NCBI RefSeq assembly: GCF_023195915.1
Contig: NZ_JALPRP010000001.1
Location: 1,928,797-1,952,796 of the forward strand
Length of the DNA stretch: 24,000 nt
Direction: 5' to 3'
Origin: Methanoculleus sp. 7T
GTDB taxonomy: Archaea; Halobacteriota; Methanomicrobia; Methanomicrobiales; Methanoculleaceae
Positions within the stretch are counted from its first letter, which is position 1. Every line of letters begins with the position of its first letter. The position numbers and the translations under genes are program-made. Below are positions 1 through 13,767 of this stretch, piece after piece. The notes under the pieces are model-generated. The model made no database searches. It was not told the DNA's origin and worked only from the letters and a program-made list of their open reading frames with translations.

Positions 1-3000
1 CACATGACGCTGAAGGAGTGTAACGTTGTCTATATCAATCCAGGGACTACTGGCATTTCCTGAAATAATTCTCTCGGGATGGTGGAAGTACCAACCGTCG
101 TGAGGACCATTATGGGCATAGGTGGCAATAGTTGATATTGATGTTCCTCGTCTTCCAGCGCGTCCTGCTCTTTGCTGATAGTTCTCCCTCATGGGGGGGA
201 CGTTCCTAAGGCTGATAGCAGTCAAAGAACCGATATCAATGCCAACTTCCATCGTTGTTGTACAACTCAATACATCAATAGGAAGTTCGTCATCTAACAG
301 TAGATTCTGGAACCGCATCTCGTAACTTTCTGTTGTGGACCAAATATCATCTCGCTGATCTTTGTAAGATAGTTGTGCTGTGTGTTCTTCGGTATTAATG
401 GTACGGATCGATTTGCCCGATCCCTCTGTAATTGCACCAAGGACTGGATCTCTCCAGAATTTGTATCGTTCAAGATCTCCATCATTCATCTCGTAGACAT
501 CAACCGAACCGCAATGTGCACATTTCTCGAACAGAGTATACGGGAAAATGCCTGAACAAGTTCTACAACGATGCCACTTGTGTTCATCTTCGGTTTTTAA
601 TGTAATTTTATCTAATATAAGGTAATATCTGCTCTCTTCCTCTCCGCTTCCGCGACTAAGGAATGTTTCGGAAAGTATGGATGCAATCCAGTTAATCTGT
701 TCCTGAGTATACCTTTCTATCAGGATTTTTTTAAATTTTGGTGGTAGTTTCTGCAGGTCTTTCTCTTGTATACCAAATCTAGTAAACTTACGGAGGGCAA
801 TATTGAACCGTATTTGATCCGAGATCTGGTTTCCAATAGCAAATGAGTTCGTACAGTGATAGTGAGCCCATGCCGCGAAAAGGGCAATGAATTCCTCTTC
901 GGACATCTTGATGCCATGTTCGTAAAACGAGTCAAGACAGTCTCGAATGTCGTCCTTTTCGCAAGGTTCCATCCAACCCAGTCCAAGATCGGTCAATGAC
1001 CTAAAAGGCGAGCAAAGGTTCTTTAGGAGTTGTTCTGAAAAAAGTCCTGGCTTATTCTTGAAATCACGTGTAATTCTATCATACTTGAGTGGTTTGTTCC
1101 GTTTTCCTGCTTTTTCAATGATGACCTTGATGGTTTCTAGATCTTCATTAAAGCGTTCCTTATCCCCCCCATAAAACAGGCGCAAATGATTGTAGTACGC
1201 TATCTCTAAGAATGCGGGATAAAGCATATCAAGTGTGGCACTCTCCCCTGTTTCCTCAGCCCATTGCTGTAAACGGGCAGCCGCTAGAACTAAAACCGCC
1301 CTTGCAGCCTGATCATCTGCTGTCCTTGTCATATCTTTAGCGAGTACTGCGGCCCTTTGTCTACTGTCAGAAAAGATGAGGACTTTTCTCCCAGCATTTG
1401 GTTGTCGCTTAAGTTTTTCCTCATCAAAGAGTATAGGAGGTTGGACAGATAATTGTGAAGAAACAATGTTGTAAAATGGTTCATTTCCCTTTGTAGAAAA
1501 GTCAGAAAACGAGTAACTACTTAACTGTTTTTCACATTTGGGACAATAGTAAAATGTTAATTGCTCTGGTTTCCCTTTTACTGGTTTAAGAGAATAACAG
1601 ACCTGTAAGAATCCACTCTCCCCAGCATGAATGTTGTCGAAATGGATGAACCCGGTCTTTGCATCTAGCCACCCCAAGCGGATATTTTTTTTATTTATGG
1701 GATGGTTCTTTGGATTCTGTGGGATGATATATAGATGCACTTCCTTTAACTCTTTTCCAAATATTTCCCCTGGTGTTTGCCATAAATATTTTTTATCCTC
1801 GAAATTTTCCGCATTAAGCAAGTATCCTTTAAGAAACAGGGCTCCGCATCTTCTATCATTGATTAACTCATAGATTCTCGCACCACAATGGGGACAGATG
1901 TCTTGTTCACTATCTGAGTAAATTTTACCAAGAGCGACTCCATCTCCAGTGTGTTTTTGGGGGCAATTGGGATTTGTACAGGTGTACAGTCCCTGCAGAC
2001 CACGGAAAAACATGTGCAGTCTAGCATGAAAAAGAACCTGTCTGTCTTTTTTGGCAAGTGGTAAAAGCGATAGAAGAACTTGTGTTGCAGCGAATGCGGT
2101 TTCAAAATCATCGTTTGGAAAAGCGATTACTGCGAGTTTTGTAATTTCGGTAGCGTTTCCTGCGGTTTGATTCATTATCCGCTGTACAGGTCCATATTTT
2201 GGCAATGTTTCAAATAGCCATTCTTTCAGTTCTTCAATCGTAGTATATGGGGGTCTGACCCCGTCAAGTTCTTGGAAGAACCCCTGTATTGCCAGGACTT
2301 TTTTCGCATCATCAAGTTGAAAGTCAGCCAGAGGCAGAGCACTTATCTGTTTCGCTGAGAACTCTATAGGATTCTGGGAATTAATCTTTCTGTTTGCTCC
2401 GGCAATTATCGAGAATGTATCTTTCTCACCTGAGGTAAGCTTCCTTAGAAATTCTTTTAGCTTGCTATTTGTTTCCTCACTGTCAATAGGAATACTGGCA
2501 CTGGTGAGGATGAACCGTACCTTATCACGTGTTATTCCTAATTTGTACATCAACCGGCGAATAAGGAGAGCAACCTCTCCCCCGGCGGACCCACGGTACA
2601 TGTGCGCTTCATCAATGACTATTAGGAGTTTGTTTTCTGGCGATTCGTTTAACCAATTCTTGGTGTTTGACCAGAATGGCTGCTCAATCTGTCGAATCAA
2701 CATGTATTGGAGCATTGAATAGTTGGTGACCAGAATGTCAGGACAATGATCTTGCATTTCTTTGCGGGTGATCAATTCCGCATCATGTGTATTTGGTTGA
2801 TGGACCCCTTTTTTTAGATTTGTAGTATAGGATTCTAGGTTCCATTTTGAAGGATACTTCCCAAGCGATTTGAGTTCCTCAATAAATCCTGGGCTACGGT
2901 TGATTAGGTCACGTTCCAGTGTTTTTGCCAGTTTTATATTCTTATCTTTTACAGGCTCACCCGGGTACGGCGTTCTACCTGTATACATCCCAAATTGGGG

Positions 3001-3576
3001 AATCCGTATGCTTGCATCGCAGGCATATTCTTTAAAAAGTTTATGGTATTCTCCACTGTAATCTCCAATCAGTTTCCGCAGACGACCAATCTGATCTGCG
3101 ACCAATGCATTCATGGGGTAGAGTAACAACGCTCTGACACCCCGTTTACTCCAAGTATCTGGACGTGTTTTTGCCTCAACCGCAAGGTTTGCAACAAGAG
3201 GCCACATGAAGCACTCAGTCTTTCCAGAACCCGTGCCTGTAGTCACTAAAATATCCTTTCCTTGATAAAAATCCTCAAGCGCTTTAATCTGGTGGCTATA
3301 GGGGTCTTTGAAAACCCCTAACTTCCTTTCACACATTTGGTGGAGGAATTGTTTGATATTTTCTGGGATGTTTGCATCAGCTAATCCATTGTTTAAGGCT
3401 AAGTACGTTTGGTTTGACTCGATGCAGGGATTTTTGTAAATGGAGTTATCTTCATCCAAGATCTCTTTCGATGCGTTCAAAAGAAGATCATTCTCGCCAA
3501 AGTATTGCGCCTGAATGTAGTCCTTTAGTTTTCCGACAAGCTCGCTGTGTATATGCTGAACACTGTATTCAGACAT
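1..3576 (-). CDS. Large SF2 DEAH-box helicase with Cys4 zinc-ribbon insertions; partial, C-terminus lies beyond the window edge
   Basis: My own translation of the minus strand from ATG 3576..3574 stays open for 1192 codons to nt 1. The ORF is not in the supplied track because it runs off the edge. Helicase motifs occur in order in one frame: motif I/Walker A TTGTGSGKTE (nt ~3217-3243), Ia LYPMNALVADQ, II VIDEAHMYRG (DEAH nt ~2602-2613), III LTSAS, IV-like KVLIFSDSRQRA (nt ~1357-1383), V SCTTTMEVGIDIG, VI QRAGRAGRRG (nt ~145-177). Cys4 clusters are CTNPNC...CPHCG (nt ~1879-1980) and CRTCS...CAHCG (nt ~505-567). An SD-like GGTGGTG sits just upstream of the ATG. The ATG overlaps the upstream gene's stop (ATGTCTGA). 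Confidence 0.85.
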   Translation of the reverse strand, partial: MSEYSVQHIHSELVGKLKDYIQAQYFGENDLLLNASKEILDEDNSIYKNPCIESNQTYLALNNGLADANIPENIKQFLHQMCERKLGVFKDPYSHQIKALEDFYQGKDILVTTGTGSGKTECFMWPLVANLAVEAKTRPDTWSKRGVRALLLYPMNALVADQIGRLRKLIGDYSGEYHKLFKEYACDASIRIPQFGMYTGRTPYPGEPVKDKNIKLAKTLERDLINRSPGFIEELKSLGKYPSKWNLESYTTNLKKGVHQPNTHDAELITRKEMQDHCPDILVTNYSMLQYMLIRQIEQPFWSNTKNWLNESPENKLLIVIDEAHMYRGSAGGEVALLIRRLMYKLGITRDKVRFILTSASIPIDSEETNSKLKEFLRKLTSGEKDTFSIIAGANRKINSQNPIEFSAKQISALPLADFQLDDAKKVLAIQGFFQELDGVRPPYTTIEELKEWLFETLPKYGPVQRIMNQTAGNATEITKLAVIAFPNDDFETAFAATQVLLSLLPLAKKDRQVLFHARLHMFFRGLQGLYTCTNPNCPQKHTGDGVALGKIYSDSEQDICPHCGARIYELINDRRCGALFLKGYLLNAENFEDKKYLWQTPGEIFGKELKEVHLYIIPQNPKNHPINKKNIRLGWLDAKTGFIHFDNIHAGESGFLQVCYSLKPVKGKPEQLTFYYCPKCEKQLSSYSFSDFSTKGNEPFYNIVSSQLSVQPPILFDEEKLKRQPNAGRKVLIFSDSRQRAAVLAKDMTRTADDQAARAVLVLAAARLQQWAEETGESATLDMLYPAFLEIAYYNHLRLFYGGDKERFNEDLETIKVIIEKAGKRNKPLKYDRITRDFKNKPGLFSEQLLKNLCSPFRSLTDLGLGWMEPCEKDDIRDCLDSFYEHGIKMSEEEFIALFAAWAHYHCTNSFAIGNQISDQIRFNIALRKFTRFGIQEKDLQKLPPKFKKILIERYTQEQINWIASILSETFLSRGSGEEESRYYLILDKITLKTEDEHKWHRCRTCSGIFPYTLFEKCAHCGSVDVYEMNDGDLERYKFWRDPVLGAITEGSGKSIRTINTEEHTAQLSYKDQRDDIWSTTESYEMRFQNLLLDDELPIDVLSCTTTMEVGIDIGSLTAISLRNVPPMRENYQQRAGRAGRRGTSISTIATYAHNGPHDGWYFHHPERIISGNASSPWIDIDNVTLLQRHV

Positions 3577-4609
3577 CTTGCACCACCTGAATGTTCAGAT
3601 TCTTTAGTATATTTGTAATAATTGGAAGGAATACTGGCAACGTAATGAATTCTGTTCTGTCCAAAATATTTCGAATGGGCCAAGCTACCATATAAAACAG
3701 CATTTCCTCTCTCCCTGGGAGGGCAGAGTGTAGTTTGATTTTGATGGCATCCCTGTAAGTTGTTATTATGGCTCGTTCTGGATTATGATTCAGATATCGA
3801 AAGCCATACATGAACCTACGGACCTCTTGCAACTTTACAATGTGATCTGGAAATGCATGAGTATATGTCATTCCATTTTCCTGTTTAGCAAATCCGTAAT
3901 CATCACGGTTATTTCGATACACTGTTGCTTTCCATGGGTGGCAAAGCGATTTGTCCCATGACTCGGAGAAAACTCGCCTTGAAAGCGGGTCAAAATACCT
4001 TCGAGCGTCGGATATCGTAGTGTTTGGTGTATATTCACTTCTAGCAAACTTGCTATATTTGAGAACAATTGTTTTTGCATCAGTTTGTGGTATCAAAAAG
4101 AGTTCTTCGATCGGATAGGTATCAGATTCTGAAATCCCGTCGACGTACCACCCCAGACCATATGTCTTTCCCTCTCTTCCAAATGATGTCCCACGCAGTA
4201 GATATAAGTTATTGGTAATTTTCGCGTATTTGTCGGGCGGCAACTGAATGGTGTTATCTGGCCCCGAAACTAGAAATCCAGAGAACTCCAACCTCTCTTG
4301 AATTATTTTGGCTGGTTGGATACCCTGTTTCTCCGGAGGGTAAAACCATCTCCTTACGTTCGGGTAGAGATCTAAATAGGTTGAAAGAATAATATTGCAT
4401 TTTCTGGTCACATGGTGTCTTGTGTACGGTGCATATCTTGGATCCTGAGAATCACTTTCAATCTCAAGGTTTCTATCCAATACTGCTGTTTTGGTCCACT
4501 CTGATATGGCAGAGTAGAGTATTCGAGCAATGTACGCATTTTCATCTTCACAAAAAAAACGGGTTATCCCCAGCCCCTGTGCTATGATTTCGTGGGGATC
4601 CGGTCCCAT
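3569..4609 (-). CDS. Hypothetical protein, third gene of the low-GC cassette; no motif I recognise
   Basis: Long ORF in the supplied track (3569..4627, 352 aa), but the track start at 4627 is TTG. The first ATG is at 4609, preceded by GGAGG (4625..4621) at SD distance and lying 5 nt after the upstream stop. That gives about 346 aa beginning MGPDPHEIIAQGLG. Composition and coupling match its neighbours. Confidence 0.75.
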   Translation of the reverse strand: MGPDPHEIIAQGLGITRFFCEDENAYIARILYSAISEWTKTAVLDRNLEIESDSQDPRYAPYTRHHVTRKCNIILSTYLDLYPNVRRWFYPPEKQGIQPAKIIQERLEFSGFLVSGPDNTIQLPPDKYAKITNNLYLLRGTSFGREGKTYGLGWYVDGISESDTYPIEELFLIPQTDAKTIVLKYSKFARSEYTPNTTISDARRYFDPLSRRVFSESWDKSLCHPWKATVYRNNRDDYGFAKQENGMTYTHAFPDHIVKLQEVRRFMYGFRYLNHNPERAIITTYRDAIKIKLHSALPGREEMLFYMVAWPIRNILDRTEFITLPVFLPIITNILKNLNIQVVQDV

Positions 4610-4613
4610 AAAG

Positions 4614-7109
4614 TTATTCTCCTCCAAGAAGTTTGTCTACGATCTTTTTGAGATCGTCTCTGTCAAGATATTCCAACCCTTGATTCAACTCATCTATAGT
4701 TCCAAGTAATTTGCAGTAGGTTGCAAGTTCGAGAAGTATTATAGTCTCCACATTTTTCCCATCATTTGTTGCAACCGTGGATACTATCGCAGTTCTGGTT
4801 AGATTGTATCCATTTGTTGCATTTACCGCCCGTGATAACTTAAAGATCTTCTGATAAATACTCTTAATATTCCCTTGTTTTTCAACGGGTGCAACGATGG
4901 TACAATATCCAGGGTTCAAGTCTTCAGTTTCAACGGAGGTGATTACATCATCGGAGTTCATGAAAGCCACATATCCAAGCAAACTTGGTGGGAGTATTCG
5001 CATAGTTTCTGCGAAATCGAGTGAATACAGGATGTATTTTTCTGGGTTTTTGTCGGCCATATCCTTTGCAAGGTGCGCATAGCAGTATTCATCGATGGAT
5101 CCGATGACGTTTTGAAGAAGAACTACGTTTCCAGAGGCAGTTTTTACAGTATTTATCAGTGAAGAATAGTCGGTGTAACCTGTAGGAACAGAGATTATTT
5201 CGGGTGTTTGTGAGCAGAGTGTAACTGAGATGGCCTTGGCCATGAGACTTACATTACACCCTGCAAGAAGTAGTGGAGTTCTCGTCAGATATGCCCCTGC
5301 AATAAATTCAGCAAGAATTTCAGCATATTCTTGGTCAACTCCTATGTTCTGCAGGTTTTCCTTTAGATCATAAATTAAATCCTTGAGATCTGTAATCTCG
5401 AGAGGATCTGCTCCATAGTCTTCTGCTGGTCGTATCAATAGACCTGAATTTGATACTGATGCAATACTTGCCTTTTCAGACTCCCTAGTTGGCATCAACC
5501 CTTTGAATAGTGCCAGATCACCGAGGACTCTCCCTGGGTTATGTTGTATATCCTTGAATCTCTGCTCACAATAGGACTTTAATTGGTCATTGATTGCTTC
5601 TAAAGTTCGCTTATCCCTCTCAAGTTGTGCTAACTCTTCCCGAATGCGTTGCCGATCTGCGATGTCTTTCTCCAGTTGCTCTCTGGACGCCTTCAATATC
5701 GCTATATCATTCTGGAGCCTATTAGATTCCTCACGTAGTGATTGAAGTTCGTTCAGGATTATATTTTGTTGTTCGAGGCGGAACTGCTCGCTCTCTTTAG
5801 CAATAGCCTGTAATCGTTCCTTTTTGAATACGGCAATTTCCTCAACAGCGATATTTTTTTGTTCTTTCTCAAACGCCTTGAGTTCCTGCTGGATACGTTT
5901 CTCATGGTCCTGTCTTATCCGCTCGCTCTCAGATTCAACAGTTTTTTTGAGCGATTTCAATGCATCAGTCTCAGCTGTTCTCTCTGCCGCTATTGCAAGA
6001 ATTTCACCCTTAATATCCTCGATACGATCTTCTAGATCAGCAATTTCTGCTTCTAAAGATTCTTTTTGCTCAAACAAGCCCTGATTGGCTATGTGACGTA
6101 TCTTATTAATGTATTCTTCATTGATCTTTGGTATGTGGTCAATAACACCTCTTACAAATCCTTCAACCTTATCGTCGGTATCGAGATATGAATTTATTAT
6201 TTCTATTTGTGAATCTAACCATTGCTTATTCTCTGGAGACAACGCTAATGCCGGTTGTCCCTTTGGACTTGATAGTGCTTCGATCAGGATATTTTTCATC
6301 AGTCTTTTTTCGTCCTCGGAGTAGCTTAGGCGAGTGGCAATTCGGTCAAAATACTTCGCGAGAACGGCTGAATCTGTGTGAAGTTCCAGAGTGTCTAATT
6401 TATCCTGTGGTGCAATTCTCATTTTTTGGTAGATGAGTCGTCGAGTCAGGTTTGTGTGATTCTCAGACAATAAGGTTTTATATTGCGGATCAAAGGAGTC
6501 AATAACATCTTCCTTCTTGATTTTACATCGAACCAGTGGCTTTTTATCAGTTACAAAAAGCAACTGGTCGTCACGCAGACAGGATGCTGCTTTCGTTATC
6601 TCGATACAGAAATAGAACTCTTCATCGTAATCATAAACCACAAGAAGGTTTTCTGAAAAAGTGTCTGGTACAACAATGCCTTTTTCCAATATGTGCACGA
6701 GCTCATCATCTGAGCCTATCGCAAATCTCAAGTTGCCTGGGGATTCGGAAGAGAGTTTAGAGTTCTCCAAGAAGATCAATTCGTAATAATTGTATTTGCA
6801 GTGAGGAGGTTTAGGGAGACTTAAAAAGGGGATTACGTTATACTCATCTGGAGTAGCACTTTCTTTCCATGTCCAGATACCTATGGTGTCATGCTCAAAG
6901 TGGATGGAGTTATTCTCCTTCCTAACTGGCAGGAGCATGGGTCCCCCATCTGGCTTTGTGTAGATTATGCCTACGGTGTTTACTCTACTTTTTGTCCAGT
7001 CTGTCGTGGAAATATCTGCGATCCTTAAGATTTTGATCTCTTGCTCGCTAAACCTCACTGGAATTCCTATGCAACATCGCAAGTTGGGGAATTTTTTTGG
7101 GCTTATCAT
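4614..7109 (-). CDS. 831-aa protein with a central coiled-coil of about 170 aa; second gene of the cassette; function unknown
   Basis: Uninterrupted 831-aa ORF. Its ATG overlaps the upstream stop (TAATG at 7107..7111), with AGGAG upstream. Residues ~345-516 (nt ~5560-6075) are E/K/Q/L/R/I-rich and heptad-like (EAEIADLEDRIEDIKGEILAI...LQNDIAILKASREQLEKDIADRQRIREELAQLERDKRTLEAINDQLK). The C-terminal part contains a strand-loop-helix resembling a P-loop but lacking GK[ST] (TPLLLAGCNVSLMAKAISV). Confidence 0.85.
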   Translation of the reverse strand: MISPKKFPNLRCCIGIPVRFSEQEIKILRIADISTTDWTKSRVNTVGIIYTKPDGGPMLLPVRKENNSIHFEHDTIGIWTWKESATPDEYNVIPFLSLPKPPHCKYNYYELIFLENSKLSSESPGNLRFAIGSDDELVHILEKGIVVPDTFSENLLVVYDYDEEFYFCIEITKAASCLRDDQLLFVTDKKPLVRCKIKKEDVIDSFDPQYKTLLSENHTNLTRRLIYQKMRIAPQDKLDTLELHTDSAVLAKYFDRIATRLSYSEDEKRLMKNILIEALSSPKGQPALALSPENKQWLDSQIEIINSYLDTDDKVEGFVRGVIDHIPKINEEYINKIRHIANQGLFEQKESLEAEIADLEDRIEDIKGEILAIAAERTAETDALKSLKKTVESESERIRQDHEKRIQQELKAFEKEQKNIAVEEIAVFKKERLQAIAKESEQFRLEQQNIILNELQSLREESNRLQNDIAILKASREQLEKDIADRQRIREELAQLERDKRTLEAINDQLKSYCEQRFKDIQHNPGRVLGDLALFKGLMPTRESEKASIASVSNSGLLIRPAEDYGADPLEITDLKDLIYDLKENLQNIGVDQEYAEILAEFIAGAYLTRTPLLLAGCNVSLMAKAISVTLCSQTPEIISVPTGYTDYSSLINTVKTASGNVVLLQNVIGSIDEYCYAHLAKDMADKNPEKYILYSLDFAETMRILPPSLLGYVAFMNSDDVITSVETEDLNPGYCTIVAPVEKQGNIKSIYQKIFKLSRAVNATNGYNLTRTAIVSTVATNDGKNVETIILLELATYCKLLGTIDELNQGLEYLDRDDLKKIVDKLLGGE

Positions 7110-8722
7110 TACTTTCTAGTCTCCTGATTTAATTCAGATATGAGATGATAGTATGCTCGCCTTGATATTTTTCTGGATATTATCGCTTTTCTGAGATATT
7201 CATCCCTTTTAGGGCAATTTCCGAGATGATTCCGAATATATTTCACTTTCACGGGGGTTGATATAAACATATCTCCTCCCAAAGCGAGTTTCTGATACAT
7301 CATGTCATCGCATTTTATTGAGTCTCTCATTATGGTCCGAATGCGTTTTGGAACACTCACCTGGTAAGTTACATCCATTCCATGGCGTACGCATATCTTG
7401 TCTCCGTCGGAGAGGTTTAAAAATGCATGAATAGTTTGTTCATTCCAGTAAACGCTTTTCAGTTGTTCTTCTGAGTGATGATAAATATTACATTTGCTGT
7501 CTGAGTTAAAAGACAGGGTTATCCTGTCCTTGAGGAGAAAGGAGTCGCCGTTTTCAAGTGGTTTACTATCACACTCCAGTAATATTTCAGGAGGTTTGTA
7601 ATGTGATATCTCATCAGAACACCCGCACATGAGGTGAACCTTACATCCTCCGTTGGAGGTAATATCTGTAGAGTCCTTGATTGAGAGGTCTAGTAACCAT
7701 CCCGTGTTAATCCGAATCTTTGGAATGGGTTTTCTGGACTGCCTTTTTGTTTGCTGATAATAACTAAATCTATCTGCTTTTTGCGCTAGGCTGAGGATGT
7801 GCGTTGGTCTGCTGTACAACTGTCTGTTCCCATGTTGCACATGAGGAGGCCAGAGTGGAATTAATGGAGGGTGCCACTCGATAAGTTTGACCCTGAGATT
7901 ATTTGCAAACTCCTGAGCGTTTTCTGTGACCTTGATAAATTGTATTCGATAGATCCGCCACTCAGATTCATATCCGAAGGATTTCCCCTCCAGTGTTCCT
8001 AATGGTTCATATTCGAGAAAATCTTCAGTGTGATCTGGTATTTTAGAGGCTGTCGCCAGATAATAATACTTATCTGTCGTTATCTCTGCGTTTTCTGAGA
8101 TACCACGAGCATAAGTATTACTGCTGTATCTAAACAATGCCCCTTCTTCTGGGAGTCCCGCTTGATATTCCCTCCAGCTTTTAATAATACCCTGATTAAC
8201 CGAACATTCACTGTATTTAAGGGAGTAATAATCGCATATCCACTTCAATTGAATATATGTGCTCTCCCCCGCGACTACTTGACTCATAAGGAGTCTATTT
8301 TCTTTGAGCTCTGCATTATTTGGATTGATAATTTGTACTATGAGGTTTTCGTTTCTAGCAGATGCAACGATCTTTTCTTCTAATGGGGAAAAGCCAAGAA
8401 AGAGTCCAAAGGTCTCTCCCCCCTTTAAAATGTAGATATTTTTTGAACGTTGGCCTGACTTGCGCTCCTCCTGCTGTCTCTGATACATGGCCGCATATCT
8501 ATTATCCGAATAATGGTTGGGGCAATCTTGGGTTTTGGGATTATTTGGAAGGTGTCTAAAGTAGGTTCTCTCATCCCCATTTACTAGCCTAACCGGTTCT
8601 CTGCACTCTGGGCAAATAAAATTGGCACTTTTGAAAAAATGAAAGTAAGGGTCATTTGCAAGGGCTCTTGCATAAACCAACTCTTTACATCCGGAAGATC
8701 TCTTCCTGATTGCGTAATCCAC
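7109..8722 (-). CDS. 537-aa protein with an N-terminal CoiA-like zinc finger; first long gene of the cassette; function unknown
   Basis: Uninterrupted ORF with a GTG start at 8722, preceded by AAGAGGGG (SD-like). Residues 35-71 read FICPECREPVRLVNGDERTYFRHLPNNPKTQDCPNHY. This fits the CxxC-(x13)-[YH]F.H-...-C pattern I associate with the N-terminus of CoiA-like competence/nuclease family proteins. The rest has no motif I recognise. Confidence 0.85.
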   Translation of the reverse strand: MDYAIRKRSSGCKELVYARALANDPYFHFFKSANFICPECREPVRLVNGDERTYFRHLPNNPKTQDCPNHYSDNRYAAMYQRQQEERKSGQRSKNIYILKGGETFGLFLGFSPLEEKIVASARNENLIVQIINPNNAELKENRLLMSQVVAGESTYIQLKWICDYYSLKYSECSVNQGIIKSWREYQAGLPEEGALFRYSSNTYARGISENAEITTDKYYYLATASKIPDHTEDFLEYEPLGTLEGKSFGYESEWRIYRIQFIKVTENAQEFANNLRVKLIEWHPPLIPLWPPHVQHGNRQLYSRPTHILSLAQKADRFSYYQQTKRQSRKPIPKIRINTGWLLDLSIKDSTDITSNGGCKVHLMCGCSDEISHYKPPEILLECDSKPLENGDSFLLKDRITLSFNSDSKCNIYHHSEEQLKSVYWNEQTIHAFLNLSDGDKICVRHGMDVTYQVSVPKRIRTIMRDSIKCDDMMYQKLALGGDMFISTPVKVKYIRNHLGNCPKRDEYLRKAIISRKISRRAYYHLISELNQETRK

Positions 8723-8739
8723 TGAAACCCCTCTTTAAA

Positions 8740-8907
8740 TCAATGATATGTTCTTTCAGTTAAGATAATCTCGTCGAATTGTTCATGTAGGCGATCTGTG
8801 AGAACAAACTCATCCTGTGCTTTGTCATAGGGTGTTTCCGGCAAGCTTATCCCACCTTCAGGCGATCTCGCTGTATGACGCTCTCCTCCGACATCCCAAA
8901 AGGCCAT
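8740..8907 (-). CDS. Possible 55-aa ORF spanning the GC/AT compositional junction (speculative)
   Basis: Hand translation gives MAFWDVGGERHTARSPEGGISLPETPYDKAQDEFVLTDRLHEQFDEIILTERTYH, with its stop at 8742..8740. That is 17 nt upstream of the GTG of the 537-aa gene. The ORF is below the 60-aa cutoff of the supplied track. Its 5' half is GC-rich and its 3' half AT-rich. There is no recognisable motif. Confidence 0.2.
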   Translation of the reverse strand: MAFWDVGGERHTARSPEGGISLPETPYDKAQDEFVLTDRLHEQFDEIILTERTYH

Positions 8908-8983
8908 CGTATCGCACCACTGCTCTACGAAGCGTTCAGGACTACCGGCAACGTCCCGTTGTCCTGAAGGAGATGAGCCCCGC

Positions 8984-9478
8984 TCACCGGCTCACCAGCG
9001 CAGGCAGCCGCCCGTTGTGCGCCTCTTGGTATCTCTCCTTCAGGGCTTCCTCGGCAGTTCCCGGATGATCGTCGACGACCATCCACCCGTACTGCAGTTC
9101 CCACCCGGATGAGAGGAGCGCCCATAGAGGGTACTGAGCAGTATGGCGGGTTGCAAATTCCAGGTATCGGGCGTGGAGGGTGTTCTTGCTCCCGGGGTGT
9201 GTCCCTGCCGACCCAATGTAGATCGTCAGGCAGTCGTCGATCGCCAGGAGTCGGTCAAGCCGGCTGCGAAGAAACCGGCCTGCCACGTCCCAGCCAATTG
9301 ACCTGGCCAGACCGACGGCCTTCTCGTGGACCTCTCCTACTGGAGTTCCGCGTCGGTGAATCCGGATGACGTAAACCCCTTTCCGCTTCGGTGGTTCTGC
9401 GTCCTGAAACCGCGTGAACTCAAACTTGTCGAAGAGGCCGTTGCAGCAGCCGCCTTCCAGCGAAGATCCTTTCATCAT
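8984..9478 (-). CDS. GIY-YIG-like nuclease domain protein (tentative)
   Basis: 164-aa ORF starting 10 nt downstream of the PLD gene stop, so probably co-transcribed. It contains KGVYVIRI (GIY-like), TIYIGSAG (YIG-like), LHARYLEF (conserved Arg region) and C-terminal AEEALKERYQEAHNGRLPAL (Glu-containing helix). The spacing between the GIY and YIG elements is longer than canonical, so the family call is tentative. Confidence 0.6.
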   Translation of the reverse strand: MMKGSSLEGGCCNGLFDKFEFTRFQDAEPPKRKGVYVIRIHRRGTPVGEVHEKAVGLARSIGWDVAGRFLRSRLDRLLAIDDCLTIYIGSAGTHPGSKNTLHARYLEFATRHTAQYPLWALLSSGWELQYGWMVVDDHPGTAEEALKERYQEAHNGRLPALVSR

Positions 9479-9488
9479 AGTCTAGCCG

Positions 9489-10259
9489 TTACCGATAGTA
9501 GGTCTTGTAGCAGTCATCGCAGATTGGCCGGGTCTTTGTTGTCGCATGTTTGGTCCCGCACTTGTGACAGACCTTCTCCTTGTAATCTGGGTTGTTGAAG
9601 CGGGTCCAGGAAGCAAAGCACTTCGGACAGTACGGCTTCTCCGGGTTATAATCGATCGTCGCTCCGCACCGGATGCAGTACGCAGCCTCCCCCAGCACCG
9701 TGTCCAGCGCCTTCTCGAAGAACCCTTTCTTTGGAGGGGCTTTCAGCTTCGGCGATATGGTCCTGATGGGTTTTCTCGGTTCATAGGTCCGTTGATTCAC
9801 GTTGGCCGCCGCAGCCGTCTGGTTGTTGCTCTCCGGGCTGCTTGCTTGCAAGATCCTTTCAACTTCTTCAAGCGTCTGGGTGTAGAGGACCGGATCGGTC
9901 TCCCGGAAAAACCGGACACCCATCTCCCAGTTGTTGCTCTGCGAGTGCTCGTAAAGGTTCATCGAGGTGATTATGCCGAACTGCTCGTTGATGTAGCATT
10001 TGGCGTGGAGGTCGTTGCACTTGTAGAGTTGAGCGCTCTGCAATTGTTTGAGAAACGCCAGGTCCTCCGGATTGGGGTTCGTGTCGCTCCGGTAGACGAT
10101 GTCGATGGGGACCTTTTTGTCGTCAATGCTCTGGAGGTATTTCCTGTTGTGCGGGGTCAGGCTGATGTAGGGAGAGATGATGAAGATTTGCTCCTCTGCG
10201 TTCTTGATGATCTCGATGAACGCTGCACTTACCCCCAATGCGTCGAGAAAATCTGCCAT
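9489..10259 (-). CDS. PLD/HKD-family (Nuc-like) nuclease domain protein with C-terminal tandem zinc ribbons
   Basis: 256-aa ORF with an ATG at 10259 and AGGAG upstream. It has a single HKD-type motif, LHAKCYINEQFGIITSMNL (HxKx4E...TSxN). The C-terminus has CIRCG...CPKC and CHKCG...CDDC pairs. The 238-aa plus-strand ORF 9546..10262 is its antisense shadow. Confidence 0.85.
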   Translation of the reverse strand: MADFLDALGVSAAFIEIIKNAEEQIFIISPYISLTPHNRKYLQSIDDKKVPIDIVYRSDTNPNPEDLAFLKQLQSAQLYKCNDLHAKCYINEQFGIITSMNLYEHSQSNNWEMGVRFFRETDPVLYTQTLEEVERILQASSPESNNQTAAAANVNQRTYEPRKPIRTISPKLKAPPKKGFFEKALDTVLGEAAYCIRCGATIDYNPEKPYCPKCFASWTRFNNPDYKEKVCHKCGTKHATTKTRPICDDCYKTYYR

Positions 10260-10497
10260 TAGATTGCTCCTAATGGTATACTATACGGTGGGGCGGCGAA
10301 AAAGATTCTTATACGCCCCCTTTGCTCAGGATCACTGGTATGGAGCCGTTTTGCTGGAAATTCAACCGAACGGAGAGTGGAACGCTGACATAAAGTATTT
10401 GGTGATCGAGAAGAAATTTTCAATCAAGAATAGAAGGGCACAGCGGAGTTATACTGAGAGTTGGGCAGTACCGCGAGGGCGGTGAAACAGGGAGCCT
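10260..10497. promoter_or_regulatory. Divergent intergenic region between the PLD operon (-) and the NERD gene (+), with TATA-like elements
   Basis: A 238-nt gap between divergent starts. TATA-like strings are tatactata (10277..10285) and tcttatac (10307..10314). I cannot place transcription starts by eye. Confidence 0.3.
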
Positions 10498-11493
10498 ATG
10501 GTCATAATACATGGAGTATCCGGAAGTACGAAGTACCTGCTGAATGGGCTGAAATCTGTTGGTGGAGGAAGTCTGGGGACCTTTGAAGATATTCACCACT
10601 TTTACAACAACTATACCGGAATCCTGGCCGAGACCGAAGCCGCGGTAAATGCTCAACTGGATGAGAGGATAGCCGGTCTGGGCGACGCTGAGGTCCAGTT
10701 TGATGCCCAGATTCGGGAGGGCATTGCCCGGCGGACTGCAGAAATTGATGCAGAGATCGCCGAACTCAAGACGAAGATTGCCAACGCAACGAATATTCTG
10801 ACACGGTGGGGCTATACAGTCAAATGTTGGATTGCGGTCTCTCTACGGTCCCGGAGCATATCCCGCCCCTCCAGTGGCCTGAAGTCGGAACTACGCGGCG
10901 TTCAAAACGAGAGAGCGATGCTGATCCGGAAGAGGCCGGAACTTGTCAACAAAGGGTGCAGCAACATCATTGCGAACCATGCATTCATAGCCGATAATCT
11001 GTTGTTCTATATCGGTGCCATCGGGGAGGAAACGGTCATCGCCGCCCTCTCCCGGATCTCCGACGAGTACCACCTGTTCAATGACGTGAACCTGCGTTTC
11101 CATCCTCCTATCCACTGGAGAGAGATGAATGACTACATCAAGTCGAGCCAGATCGATCACATCGTCGTAGGGCCGACGGGTCTCTTCGTCGTGGAGACGA
11201 AGAACTGGAAGTTCTCAGACATTGAGAAGAAATCTGACAAACTGGTCTACCAGGTGAGACGATCAAGCCTGGCGCTCTGGTACTACCTGCGGAAGAACTA
11301 TGCACGAAATGACGTGCCGAAGACCCGCAATGTCGTCGTCTCGGTGCAGGGCTGCCGTCCCGGTCAGAAACTGGACTCCCACATCGATATCACCACCCCC
11401 AACAGGCTCTGTGAATACATAACGAAAAGAACGAACACCCTGCCGGCAGATGCGGTCGATCGGTTGGTTGCCGTGATTGGCCGGATCGCATGA
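10498..11493 (+). CDS. NERD (nuclease-related domain) protein with an N-terminal coiled-coil region
   Basis: 331-aa ORF with GGGAG upstream of the ATG. The C-terminal half matches the NERD pattern: GAIGEETVIAALSRISDEYHLFNDVNLRF...SSQIDHIVVGPTGLFVVETKNWKF. The N-terminal ~100 aa are A/E/I-rich and helical (AETEAAVNAQLDERIAGLGDAEVQFDAQIREGIARRTAEIDAEIAELKTKIANA). Confidence 0.85.
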   Translation: MVIIHGVSGSTKYLLNGLKSVGGGSLGTFEDIHHFYNNYTGILAETEAAVNAQLDERIAGLGDAEVQFDAQIREGIARRTAEIDAEIAELKTKIANATNILTRWGYTVKCWIAVSLRSRSISRPSSGLKSELRGVQNERAMLIRKRPELVNKGCSNIIANHAFIADNLLFYIGAIGEETVIAALSRISDEYHLFNDVNLRFHPPIHWREMNDYIKSSQIDHIVVGPTGLFVVETKNWKFSDIEKKSDKLVYQVRRSSLALWYYLRKNYARNDVPKTRNVVVSVQGCRPGQKLDSHIDITTPNRLCEYITKRTNTLPADAVDRLVAVIGRIA

Positions 11494-11564
11494 GGTTAAA
11501 GAGATCGACTCCTTGATACGAGAGCCATCTCTATCTTTCCAGGTGACGGCTGGAATTGGATAAC

Positions 11565-12216: not shown

Positions 12217-12734
12217 TTATACAGCCTTCTCGACCCTCTCCTTCAGCCCGGACGCGAACGCCTCCATCGAGTCCAGGTCTTTGAACCCGGCGAAGATAAC
12301 CTTCCCTGACGAGAATACGAGAGCGGTCCCTGCCTCGCCCCGGTAGATCAGGCCCGGGAACTGCTCGGGCTCGTACTCGACCTGCTCCATCCTGAGCGCG
12401 ACGACGAGTCGTGATAGTGGGACTTCTATCTGGAAGTCATCCATGCCGACGACATTCCGGATTTCCGGCGCCGTTGCGAGTGAAGGATCAATGATGGGTA
12501 AGTTTAGGGTGAGGAACTCCTGATAGGACTTATCAACATCGTCAAGGGACGTAAGGCCGTAGATGATGTACTTCCCGCTCCGGTAGATGGTTGGCCTTCC
12601 CCTGGAGAGGAGGATGTAGGCCCCGTGGTAGATCTTAGGGTCATACTTATAGGTAGACTCGAGAGCTCCGGCAACCGCTCAAATGGGATCGGCTGGTGGA
12701 GGTCGCCGGAAGCAACGATGTTGATGATCTTCAT
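12217..12734 (-). pseudogene. tbp: TATA-box-binding protein (TBP) paralogue interrupted by a 1-nt frameshift
   Basis: The second TBP repeat is intact in ORF 12217..12444 and its upstream extension: VEYEPEQFPGLIYRGEAGTALVFSSGKVIFAGFKDLD. The first repeat starts at ATG 12734 (MKIINIVASGDLHQPIPFE) but is in a different frame. The two frames join near nt 12675-12680, and the downstream frame has a TGA immediately upstream of the junction. The span is 518 nt, which is not a multiple of 3. Adding one nt would give about 173 aa with two TBP-like repeats. Confidence 0.7.
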
Positions 12735-13214
12735 TCCCAAATATGAACGGGACCCCGGCAAGACCTTCTTCTGGCGGGACGGGATGCTGAAGTAACCTAC
12801 CTCACCCCTGCCCAGCACCCGCACGATCACCGCCACCACCCCGCCGGCCCCGGCGCTCACCGTCGATAACCTCCGCTCCTCTCCCACTTCCTCCGCCCGA
12901 GAGCCGCTCCGGCGCCCAGCAACATGGTCCCGGAAGACCGGGCTCCCGGGTGGTCTTCTCGTTGGTCATCCCCGTAACCTTCCCTGAGGACAGCAGAATG
13001 GGGAAGAGACAAATCCTGCCCGTGAGGGCTATGCCGGGGGATCCGGGCCTCCCGGAGAAATGCCCCGCGATCAGCCTCGACGATGCCGGCGTGACGGAGG
13101 ACGGCGGGTGCGGGGTCACGGTCCGCCGCCGGGAGCAGTACTTCATGTTCGACCGTGAGGTCTACCGGACCTGGAGCAGGGGTACTTCCGTCTGGCTGGA
13201 CGGACGACCCGACG

Positions 13215-13296
13215 ATGACAGCAATGACAGCAGTTTTCAGCAGAATGACAGCAACTGCTGTCATTCTGCTGTCAACGTGCTGTCACATGCTGTCAT
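13215..13296. repeat. Array of seven TGACAGCA 8-mers (3 forward, 4 reverse) centred on a perfect 16-bp inverted repeat
   Basis: ATGACAGCA occurs at 13215, 13224 and 13245. Its complement TGCTGTCA occurs at 13256, 13267, 13278 and 13288. Spacings are 9, 21 | 11, 11, 10 bp. The arms cagcagaatgacagca (13238..13253) and tgctgtcattctgctg (13256..13271) are exact reverse complements separated by 2 nt. Confidence 0.8.
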
Positions 13297-13767
13297 TCTC
13301 CACCACCGGTCGACCCCCCGACTCCATCCCCTCCCGGTGGCAAAGGACGGGCCCGGGCCCGCGTCTGCGGCCGGCGGCCGACACCCTCCGTGAAACGGGG
13401 CGGCCTCCGTTACAACCGCCTTGCGAAGGCGAAGCGGCCCGGGAAAGTGCAACCCCTCTCCCCGGCGTGCTCGACCGCCGGGAGTTTTCCCGGATAAAGG
13501 CCGAACTCGGCCGGTGCGACGCGGGGAGAAAATGGCGGTCTACCGCTCGCGGGAGGCGCAGGCGAAGGTCTGCGATCAGTGCTGCGCCCGGGAGTGGAAC
13601 GGGCGGGCGGAGAGGGTCGTGTACGCATGACCTGCCGGATAAGGAACGGCGGGTGTCCGGGCATCGAAGGTGGGAAGCAGAAACGCAGTGAGCACCGGAG
13701 GTGCGAAGGAAGACGGATGGCACAGAAAGAGTATAACGGATACTTCCTCATTGTTGAGAGAAAAGCA

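Follow-up and report, generated by a model that had tools for sequence, protein, structure and literature searches.

Collapsed box array in a Methanoculleus genome: relic of a conserved cis-element, and candidate replication origin, inside a mobile-element rep gene

Why should a short stretch of an archaeal genome in which no gene can be called with confidence carry a dense cluster of identical boxes around a perfect palindrome? The question is raised by a 24-kb stretch of Methanoculleus DNA (the window), in which a first-pass annotation had picked out the boxes and offered readings of them, chiefly as iteron-like replication boxes of a mobile element or as a cruciform. With high confidence, the window array is the collapsed relic of a conserved cis-element that one mobile-element family has within its rep gene. 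The intact element is best read as a replication origin or Rep-loading element, a reading to which we assign a probability of about 0.6.

The boxes and the palindrome

The 8-mer TGACAGCA has seven exact copies in the window, every one of them within 13216-13295, and a variant box completes the array. The features are as follows.

13216, 13225 and 13246: forward boxes, exact copies of TGACAGCA
13256, 13267, 13278 and 13288: reverse boxes, exact copies of TGACAGCA
13235-13242, forward: eighth box, the variant TTTCAGCA, read from the sequence
13216..13295, no strand: eight 8-bp boxes in a single array, into which the two inverted arrays of the family have collapsed, as judged from the sequence and from intact relatives
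13238..13271, no strand: exact 16+16-bp inverted repeat with a 2-bp centre, containing the deletion junction GAATGACAGCAACTGCTGTCA/TTCTGCTGTCA that is common to locus A

The seven boxes first reported in 82 bp, three forward and four reverse, are borne out by this count, and the variant adds an eighth. Start-to-start spacing of the eight boxes is 9, 10, 11, 10, 11, 11 and 10 bp; the starts of the reverse set reproduce the 11, 11 and 10 bp given for it before. A short repeat recurring at about one helical turn, as expected of iterons, is found here at 9-11 bp. The palindrome is also as annotated: its arms, CAGCAGAATGACAGCA (13238-13253) and TGCTGTCATTCTGCTG (13256-13271), match exactly, and the inverted repeat stretches to 21 nt at 90% complementarity. 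The density is indeed very unlikely by chance, with 0.62 copies of TGACAGCA expected in the window and none of 100 dinucleotide-preserving shuffles reaching seven. The 82 nt, taken as a single strand, are predicted to form one hairpin (-36.8 kcal/mol, z = -9.6), and this hairpin, together with pairing conserved across the family, provides the long stem-loop expected of a pRN1-type origin. A search of the whole window against Rfam gave no family match, and a known RNA family was rejected on that ground as the identity of the array.

Nor is the box a generic motif. In the 2.6-Mb genome that holds the window, TGACAGCA has 53 matches against about 65 expected, which rules out a genome-wide motif and answers the concern, raised with the first description, that the 8-mer might be over-represented in general. 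Of these matches, 25 fall in five Rep-related clusters: the window, C11:30.8 kb, two at C21:300.8-301.1 kb, and pairs at C11:1728 kb and C11:813 kb. The multi-box clusters of this genome all lie inside Rep genes or Rep remnants. A lone TGACAGCA-GG-TGCTGTCA palindrome at C11:813549-813566 lies outside any recognisable Rep ORF, with ...DPDDDS-like codons before it and A+T-rich DNA after it; it may be a very short Rep remnant.

A decayed integrative element surrounds the array

The array had been placed in about 1 kb without a confidently callable gene. That stretch holds no intact gene, but it is not gene-free, for it contains a frame-shifted rep remnant. About 0.8 kb of an element is left in the window, and decay to this dead rep, its leader and p80 is the reason that no gene could be called.

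13046..13630, plus strand: 3' remnant of a Rep gene (pseudogene), about residues 567-761 of P0001
12970..13045, plus strand: decayed promoter/leader of the p186-orc1-p90-p113-rep operon, with the TATA-like element mutated
12790..12969, minus strand: frame-shifted remnant of the small divergent gene p80, with MTNEKTTRE... followed by ...EERRLSTVSAGAGGVVAVIVRV in another frame
C11:30463-32745 (L001:6461-8746), minus strand: P0001, the Rep of locus A, 761 aa, frame open

Window 13044-13575 is 82% identical in DNA to the rep gene of locus A (C11:31046-30515; BLAST), and residues 553-755 of P0001 are covered by tblastn. Homology begins at about 13046, near Rep codon 567, and codons 1-566 are absent. 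The remnant has at least three changes of reading frame (at about 13261, which is at the palindrome, 13459 and 13530), its first zinc ribbon has lost its cysteines, and it contains an in-frame TGA, all of which mark it as a pseudogene. C-terminal sequence homology places it with the proteins of Pfam family PF27228; an intact ORF with the ATPase core is found neither in the window copy nor at locus A. Window 12800-13049 matches DNA that lies 4-6 kb from the rep segment in other copies (BLAST), and an internal deletion of about 6 kb joined the promoter/leader directly to Rep codon ~567. The core of an intact element consists of p80, divergent from p186, followed by Orc1/Cdc6, p90, p113 and Rep.

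The neighbouring TBP pseudogene proposed at first reading is confirmed by a Pfam TBP match (E = 5.7e-13). This frameshifted TBP paralogue (window 12217-12750, minus strand) lies directly against the relic of the element; at the other loci examined, the element does not regularly have TBP next to it. Beyond the 3' side of rep, the defence-type cargo changes from locus to locus; at loci A, B and C and in the window it includes type I restriction-modification genes and DUF4062/AlbA_2-type proteins and, at window 1-11500, a NERD, PLD-nuclease and low-GC helicase cassette. It seems that the elements either are located at defence islands or bring such islands with them.

The window boxes are 94-97% identical to those of relatives, compared with 88% and 78% for the two flanks, the latter with six gaps. 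The better-kept boxes may simply have been inherited from the time when the element was functional. Because the relic was not found in any of 30 related genomes in which it was sought, it cannot be dated, and selection on it lacks a comparison.

The Rep protein and its family

Rep is a protein of about 950 aa encoded by a family of integrative elements across the Methanomicrobiales. More than 1,400 homologues, mostly of about 960 aa and from Methanoculleus, all carry PF27228 in precomputed annotation; 537 matches were found in species-representative genomes of Methanoculleus, Methanofollis, Methanogenium, Methanolinea and Methanoregula, and at least 520 in metagenomes. Sequence searches of Rep against the local Pfam, NCBIfam and PHROGs libraries and the PDB returned no match, so that the protein is identified only by its predicted fold and by a distant tblastn match to a plasmid, in which residues 347-644 align at 23% identity (E = 1e-9) with the large ORF of the 4.4-kb pMTBMA4/pME2001. 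PF27228 (MTBMA_p00010-like) is named after that ORF, and pME2001 is the replicon of a Methanothermobacter shuttle vector (PMC8609365).

The predicted fold places a primase-like domain with its Zn module at the N terminus, followed by an MCM-like AAA+ ATPase, a winged helix (WH), a disordered linker of roughly 100 aa and, at the C terminus, zinc ribbons. In the AlphaFold2 model of P0005, an intact paralogue (mean pLDDT 74), folded domains extend to residue ~725, residues 732-837 are disordered (pLDDT ~25), and two small zinc-ribbon modules follow. By Foldseek, the ATPase part matches MCM helicases (E = 1e-8; TM 0.61 to the MCM ATPase tier), and the whole protein matches viral and plasmid primase-helicase replication proteins (E = 9e-30), with DUF927, VirE, prim-pol and NrS-1-like helicase types among the fold matches. 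Two small conserved proteins, p90 and p113, are translationally coupled to rep at nearly all loci. A free circular form was sought as terminal overlaps in 31 whole contigs and 80 metagenome loci, with none detected; an IMG/VR search for Rep recovered only the N-terminal primase domain. A literature search returned no paper on this element family or its arrays.

Boxes keep their layout inside rep genes while the peptide changes

At most loci the most repeated 8-mer of the whole rep gene falls in the DNA that encodes the linker. With linker limits taken from a 51-sequence alignment, the top box of 40 diverse loci occurs 205 times in 20,382 bp of linker versus 20 times in 466,151 bp outside it, and box density in the linker is about 230-fold above that of the surrounding DNA. 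At 24 of the 40 loci the linker holds four or more exact copies, against an average maximum of three in size-matched control windows of the same genes. The enrichment was replicated at 33 of 67 loci of an independent metagenome set, and some 40-50% of loci are without 4-5 or more exact box copies.

The sequence of the box is specific to the lineage (TGACAGCA, TGGCAGCA, GTACAGCA, TTGCAGCA, TTTCAGCA, TTACAGCA, TTGCTGCA, TTTGCAAC, GTTTGCAC, TTTGCACC, GCAAAGCT and GATACACT), whereas its positions are shared by most of the intact relatives. Measured from the first reverse box, forward boxes lie at -40, -31, -21, -10, +88 and +240, and reverse boxes at 0, +165, +250, +261, +271 and +291. Even where two Reps are no more than ~50% identical, these offsets agree to about 2 bp, and this is so for six box types in four genera. 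On the left, an array of forward boxes at helical spacing closes with a tight palindrome of a forward and a reverse box; further in, an inverted pair (+88/+165) surrounds a low-GC centre that has a small palindrome of its own; and on the right a second forward-reverse palindrome leads into an array of reverse boxes.

The DNA, rather than the peptide, is what has been kept. Two loci, L009 and L003, have the same box coordinates, and one and the same A-to-G change separates them at every copy; forward and reverse boxes share it, the copies lie in different frames, and the encoded residue is altered each time. In more distant members the boxes use all three reading frames. A peptide repeat is ruled out as the cause of the boxes by their use of three frames and both orientations and by copies that change in concert. 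The pattern is the opposite of the one that would have spoken against a DNA element at the outset, namely homologues that keep the amino-acid sequence and not the DNA motif: here the box layout is kept and the peptide is not. At locus A, P0001 reads straight through the boxes (...VWLDDDPDDDSNDSRFQQNDSNYCHSAVTCCHSPPPV...).

Several related features were encountered in the same survey. Box-bearing linker units have undergone tandem expansion with a period of 153 bp in L012 and L013 (L012:8400-9000; L013:8400-8850) and of 189 bp in L159 (last 1.4 kb of rep), giving up to 24 TGACAGCA boxes per rep gene. The linker of a Methanogenium marinum Rep (L063:8300-8800) repeats GGATGATG ten times, always in the same orientation and 24-27 nt apart, which looks like a true coding repeat and not the inverted box architecture. 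The conserved intergenic region between p80 and p186 was considered as a further site of boxes and rejected, as it is a promoter/leader and is invariant with box class.

A deletion made the window palindrome

The first-pass annotation described the boxes as built around the perfect palindrome. On this point the analysis differs: the palindrome is not the family's native design, and comparison with an intact relative shows it to be the product of a deletion of about 249 bp between 21-bp direct repeats, which fused two arrays that normally lie about 250 bp apart. The relative, L127, is a fermentation-metagenome contig with an intact 959-aa Rep (P0003), whose p90, p113 and p141 are 98-100% identical to the neighbours of locus A. 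Its left and right arrays each end in the 21-bp GAATGACAGCAACTGCTGTCA, and the two copies are 249 bp apart. Deletion in silico between these repeats reproduces locus A over 160 bp with one substitution. The window has the same junction as locus A plus one extra 11-bp box unit, by which the reading frame is broken. Occurrence of the junction at locus A, elsewhere in the same genome, also makes it less likely that the window palindrome is an assembly artefact. The arrays were fused when the central ~249 bp were lost between the repeats at their inner junctions, and the ~6 kb were lost separately.

Relative to its near-twin P0003, P0001 lacks residues 380-492, the Walker-A/ATPase core, as well as 83 linker residues, and both deletions are in frame and between short repeats. 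An independent collapse in L129 (3150-3540) leaves one forward box, 7 nt and two reverse boxes; it shifts the frame so that Rep stops at 758 aa and the zinc-ribbon tail becomes a separate 101-aa ORF. Together with the tandem expansions in L012, L013 and L159, these collapses indicate that the array region is structurally unstable.

Compensatory change preserves mirror symmetry around a low-GC centre

Symmetry was measured in an alignment of eight loci from four genera with six box types. The consensus has three nested levels, formed by the left and right arrays, the +88/+165 arms and the small central palindrome; pairing of the +88/+165 arms reaches beyond the 8-mers, and the central palindrome has a lineage-specific sequence. 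Paired cells make up 87.8% of the total, versus 26-46% when the partners are slid by 1-3 columns, and 21 pairs show changes on both sides, versus 7-9 in the slid controls; none of 500 shuffles matches the observed values. Compensatory changes keep the mirror symmetry. The extended form folds strongly as a single strand (z = -5.95), and the same symmetry data fit duplex DNA or a folded single strand, whether DNA or RNA, equally.

Averaged over 49 loci, the extended form has a GC content of about 0.64 that drops to 0.45 at its centre, a dip that may reflect codon usage of the polar linker. By analogy, the layout resembles that of a bidirectional origin, with mirror-image loading sites around an easily opened centre. 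This centre is deleted from the window copy.

Candidate readers do not track the box

If the boxes were iterons of the usual kind, the DNA-binding domain of the initiator would be expected to change with them; no such co-variation was found. The WH domain that follows the ATPase in primase-helicases of mobile elements has been proposed to read the origin (PMC5862659). In Rep, the WH and zinc-ribbon consensus is nearly identical among the TGA, TGG and GTA classes and does not track box class; differences occur only in the GTTTGCAC class, at residues ~664-672 and 718-722. Comparison of p90 and p113 across box classes likewise revealed no co-variation. Orc1 WH domains do not follow the box either: those of L006 and L007 are 53% identical and accompany the same boxes, whereas that of L009 is closest to that of L017, a locus with a different box. 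Arrays occur with or without orc1 nearby, and many loci with full arrays have no orc1 within 6 kb, so an adjacent orc1/cdc6 whose WH domain reads the boxes, as an Orc1/ORB origin would have, is not what is seen.

The lack of co-variation leaves the specific-reader part of the iteron model unsupported and is the chief weakness of a classic iteron reading. It points instead to a reader that tolerates changes at box positions 1-3, or to one that recognises symmetry or structure. The box core ...CAGCA is common to many classes. Recognition of a folded structure is as likely as classic binding to duplex iterons.

Other copies in the same genome

The three intact Reps of this genome have three different boxes, TTGCAGCA at locus B, TTTGCAAC at locus C and GATACACT at locus E; the Rep of locus B also has two outer TGACAGCA boxes. 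Confinement to the linker and the pairing of three Reps with three boxes are in keeping with iterons, which are sited in the gene of their cognate initiator and are specific to a replicon. Copies of the TGACAGCA class, on the other hand, are all defective here: locus A, the window, and a third relic at C21:300.8 kb, which keeps the normal extended box layout. Two further Rep relics of this genome have lost their arrays.

At C21:300.8 kb, an insertion or MITE inside the palindrome was considered and rejected, for what seemed to be inserted is the central region that family members normally have, its boxes at canonical offsets. Dispersed copies in unrelated contexts with target-site duplications, as MITE or IS terminal repeats would show, were not found. 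The surrounding region (C21:295000-301400; L002) packs three remnants of Rep 3' ends into 6.5 kb, with intact TGACAGCA arrays only in the third, interleaved with small toxin-antitoxin-like genes (MNT/HEPN, HicB-like, RelE/ParE-like), and gives the impression of a place where decayed elements have accumulated. Among the Rep paralogues, the one that diverges most, at 55% identity, has eight GATACACT boxes at C21:~150750-151075 arranged as 2+2 forward and 2+2 reverse pairs, following the same logic with a spacing unlike the canonical layout.

What the arrays may do

Anatomy, conservation and analogy point to the boxes as a replication origin or Rep-loading element inside the rep gene of Methanomicrobiales integrative elements. 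The replication machinery would recognise the mirror-symmetric module and load at it, or open the DNA, in both directions; the reader might be Rep itself or the co-translated p90/p113, and what is recognised could be duplex iterons or hairpins extruded from the DNA, by analogy with the stem-loop origin of pRN1. The family-wide layout favours the original proposal of iteron-like replication boxes of a mobile element or a cruciform; the simple dimeric binder that came with it is only putative, since none of the candidate proteins (Rep WH, zinc ribbons, Orc1, p90 and p113) co-varies with the box. Several points count against the origin reading: no reader tracks box class, no circular form was found in the contigs and loci searched, and ~40-50% of loci are without strong arrays. 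The low-GC centre could simply reflect the polar, disordered linker, and Orc1/Cdc6, which many elements encode, could serve a separate origin. As for the window copy, no intact TGACAGCA-class Rep is present in this genome, and the copy is probably inactive, because its centre is deleted, about 6 kb including the first ~566 rep codons is lost, and the rest is frame-shifted.

The symmetric module could instead be an RNA structure in the rep mRNA, acting as a translational pause or gate between the helicase/WH part and the zinc ribbon, or as an autoregulatory target. Compensatory change supports nested stems, among them the +88/+165 stem that extends past the 8-mers and a lineage-specific central hairpin; the single strand folds well in the extended and the window form alike; box type has no co-varying DNA-binding protein; and the arrays are exactly where several Reps in the databases stop or are split. 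However, a stem needs no identical direct repeats spaced 9-11 bp apart within an arm, yet every lineage has them, and Rfam offers no match. Covariation in an inverted repeat is the same for a duplex or a folded strand and does not discriminate, and we consider an RNA role unlikely. An assignment of the arrays to copy-number control, incompatibility or partition, as handcuffing iterons or centromere-like sites whose relics act as sinks for the cognate protein, is likewise unlikely. It would accommodate the three intact elements with three boxes alongside the uniformly defective TGACAGCA copies, the greater identity of the window boxes (94-97%) than of the frameshifted flanks (88% and 78%), and the tandem expansion of box units in L012, L013 and L159, but the core module has no ParA/ParB-like genes, the mirror layout with a low-GC centre is typical of origins, and the two other Rep relics of the genome have no arrays.

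Absence of function is improbable. A repetitive, low-complexity coding linker, or the selfish dynamics of palindromes and slippage, could have produced the arrays as a side effect, with the window palindrome as junk; in keeping with this, the region readily undergoes indels, collapses and tandem expansions, its peptide is disordered, and about half of the loci are without strong arrays. This explanation does not sit well with positions kept within ~2 bp at ~50% Rep identity while both box and peptide change, with boxes in three frames and both orientations, with covariation far above controls, or with a ~230-fold excess over the surrounding DNA. Very improbable, finally, is that the boxes are ORB-like recognition boxes of an Orc1-dependent origin of the element. 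In the Methanoculleus subgroup an ORC1-type gene lies 1-2 kb upstream of rep, and inverted boxes flanking a low-GC centre resemble an archaeal oriC; yet many full arrays have no orc1 within 6 kb, and the WH domain of Orc1 does not track the box, as the L006/L007 pair (shared boxes at 53% identity) and L009 (nearest to L017, with another box) illustrate.

Within the preferred reading as an origin or Rep-loading element, a bolder version can be put forward as a long shot. Codons for the initiator's disordered linker would themselves spell out the origin, which would be symmetric at three levels and read by shape or symmetry without a co-evolving reader; p90-p113-rep would be a self-contained replicon; and relics with intact arrays, the window copy among them, would owe their persistence to titrating the replication proteins of incoming elements of the same class, an incompatibility-type immunity within defence islands.

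Comparison with known systems

We know of no replication origin for a mobile element of the Methanomicrobiales, and of no replicating vectors for this order. If the linker arrays are origins, the p90-p113-rep cassette would be a complete replicon, and different box classes would define compatible sets of vectors. The arrays are a clear instance of DNA-level and protein-level constraints on the same codons, which is possible because the linker peptide is disordered. For annotation, the recurrent GC-rich stretches with striking palindromes in Methanoculleus genomes that appear free of genes can be recognised as decayed 3' ends of rep.

Rep has its domains in the same order as the PrimPol-PV1 supergroup and PrimQH-type proteins (PMC5862659), with a primase, a Zn-binding module, a P-loop ATPase (MCM-like in Rep) and a WH domain in succession. 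Members from the Methanomicrobiales are not mentioned in that work, and Rep differs in having an extra disordered linker and one or two C-terminal zinc ribbons.

Plasmid pME2001/pMTBMA4 of Methanothermobacter marburgensis likewise combines a homologous large ORF with inverted arrays of a CTGCAGAA-type box. Its arrays are intergenic (4088-4227) and upstream of the rep gene, whereas those of the Rep elements lie inside the gene, and the proteins share only ~23% identity. In the plasmid (L130, 4088-4227 and 3265-3325), three forward ACCCTGCAGAA boxes face two or three reverse TTCTGCAGGG boxes in non-coding DNA, and the plasmid also carries a phased (A)7TCT repeat with a 10-bp period. Boxes and repeat together form a candidate origin; a literature search found no mapped origin for pME2001/pMTBMA4.

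The origin of the Sulfolobus plasmid pRN1 is a 100-nt stem-loop that adjoins the primase-helicase gene orf904; what it requires is an intact structure and not a known iteron code (PMC4234260). The two systems share an archaeal primase-helicase Rep and a structured inverted repeat, and the 82-nt hairpin of the window is similar in size. They differ in that the pRN1 stem-loop lies downstream of orf904 and has no phased direct repeats, whereas the module of the Rep elements lies within the ORF, in linker codons rather than downstream of or outside rep, spans about 340 bp and has three nested levels.

Short asymmetric inverted boxes around a centre are also a feature of the SV40 and papillomavirus origins, an analogy of mechanism only. 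SV40 large T antigen (which binds GAGGC pentamers) and papillomavirus E1 read inverted boxes with the helicase's own DNA-binding domain, and two hexamers load head to head. Those origins are compact (~64 bp) and non-coding, and neither their helicase family nor the domain of life of their hosts is related, whereas binding by Rep is putative.

A further parallel in layout is phage lambda, in which the ori repeats lie inside the gene for the O initiator, in codons of the inter-domain linker, with a low-GC stretch adjoining, and in whose relatives the repeat sequence differs. The Rep elements have the same combination of a repeat array in the linker-coding part of the element's own initiator gene, low-GC DNA nearby and repeats that vary with lineage. 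Lambda has four direct 19-bp iterons with internal symmetry and an A+T-rich region on one side, whereas the Rep elements have asymmetric 8-bp boxes in two inverted arrays with inner pairs and a central dip; lambda O is a partner of the helicase loader, whereas Rep is a primase-helicase fusion without a co-varying reading domain. If the origin reading is correct, the linker arrays would be an archaeal counterpart of lambda O/ori, with an initiator that is also the helicase and with a mirror-symmetric layout.
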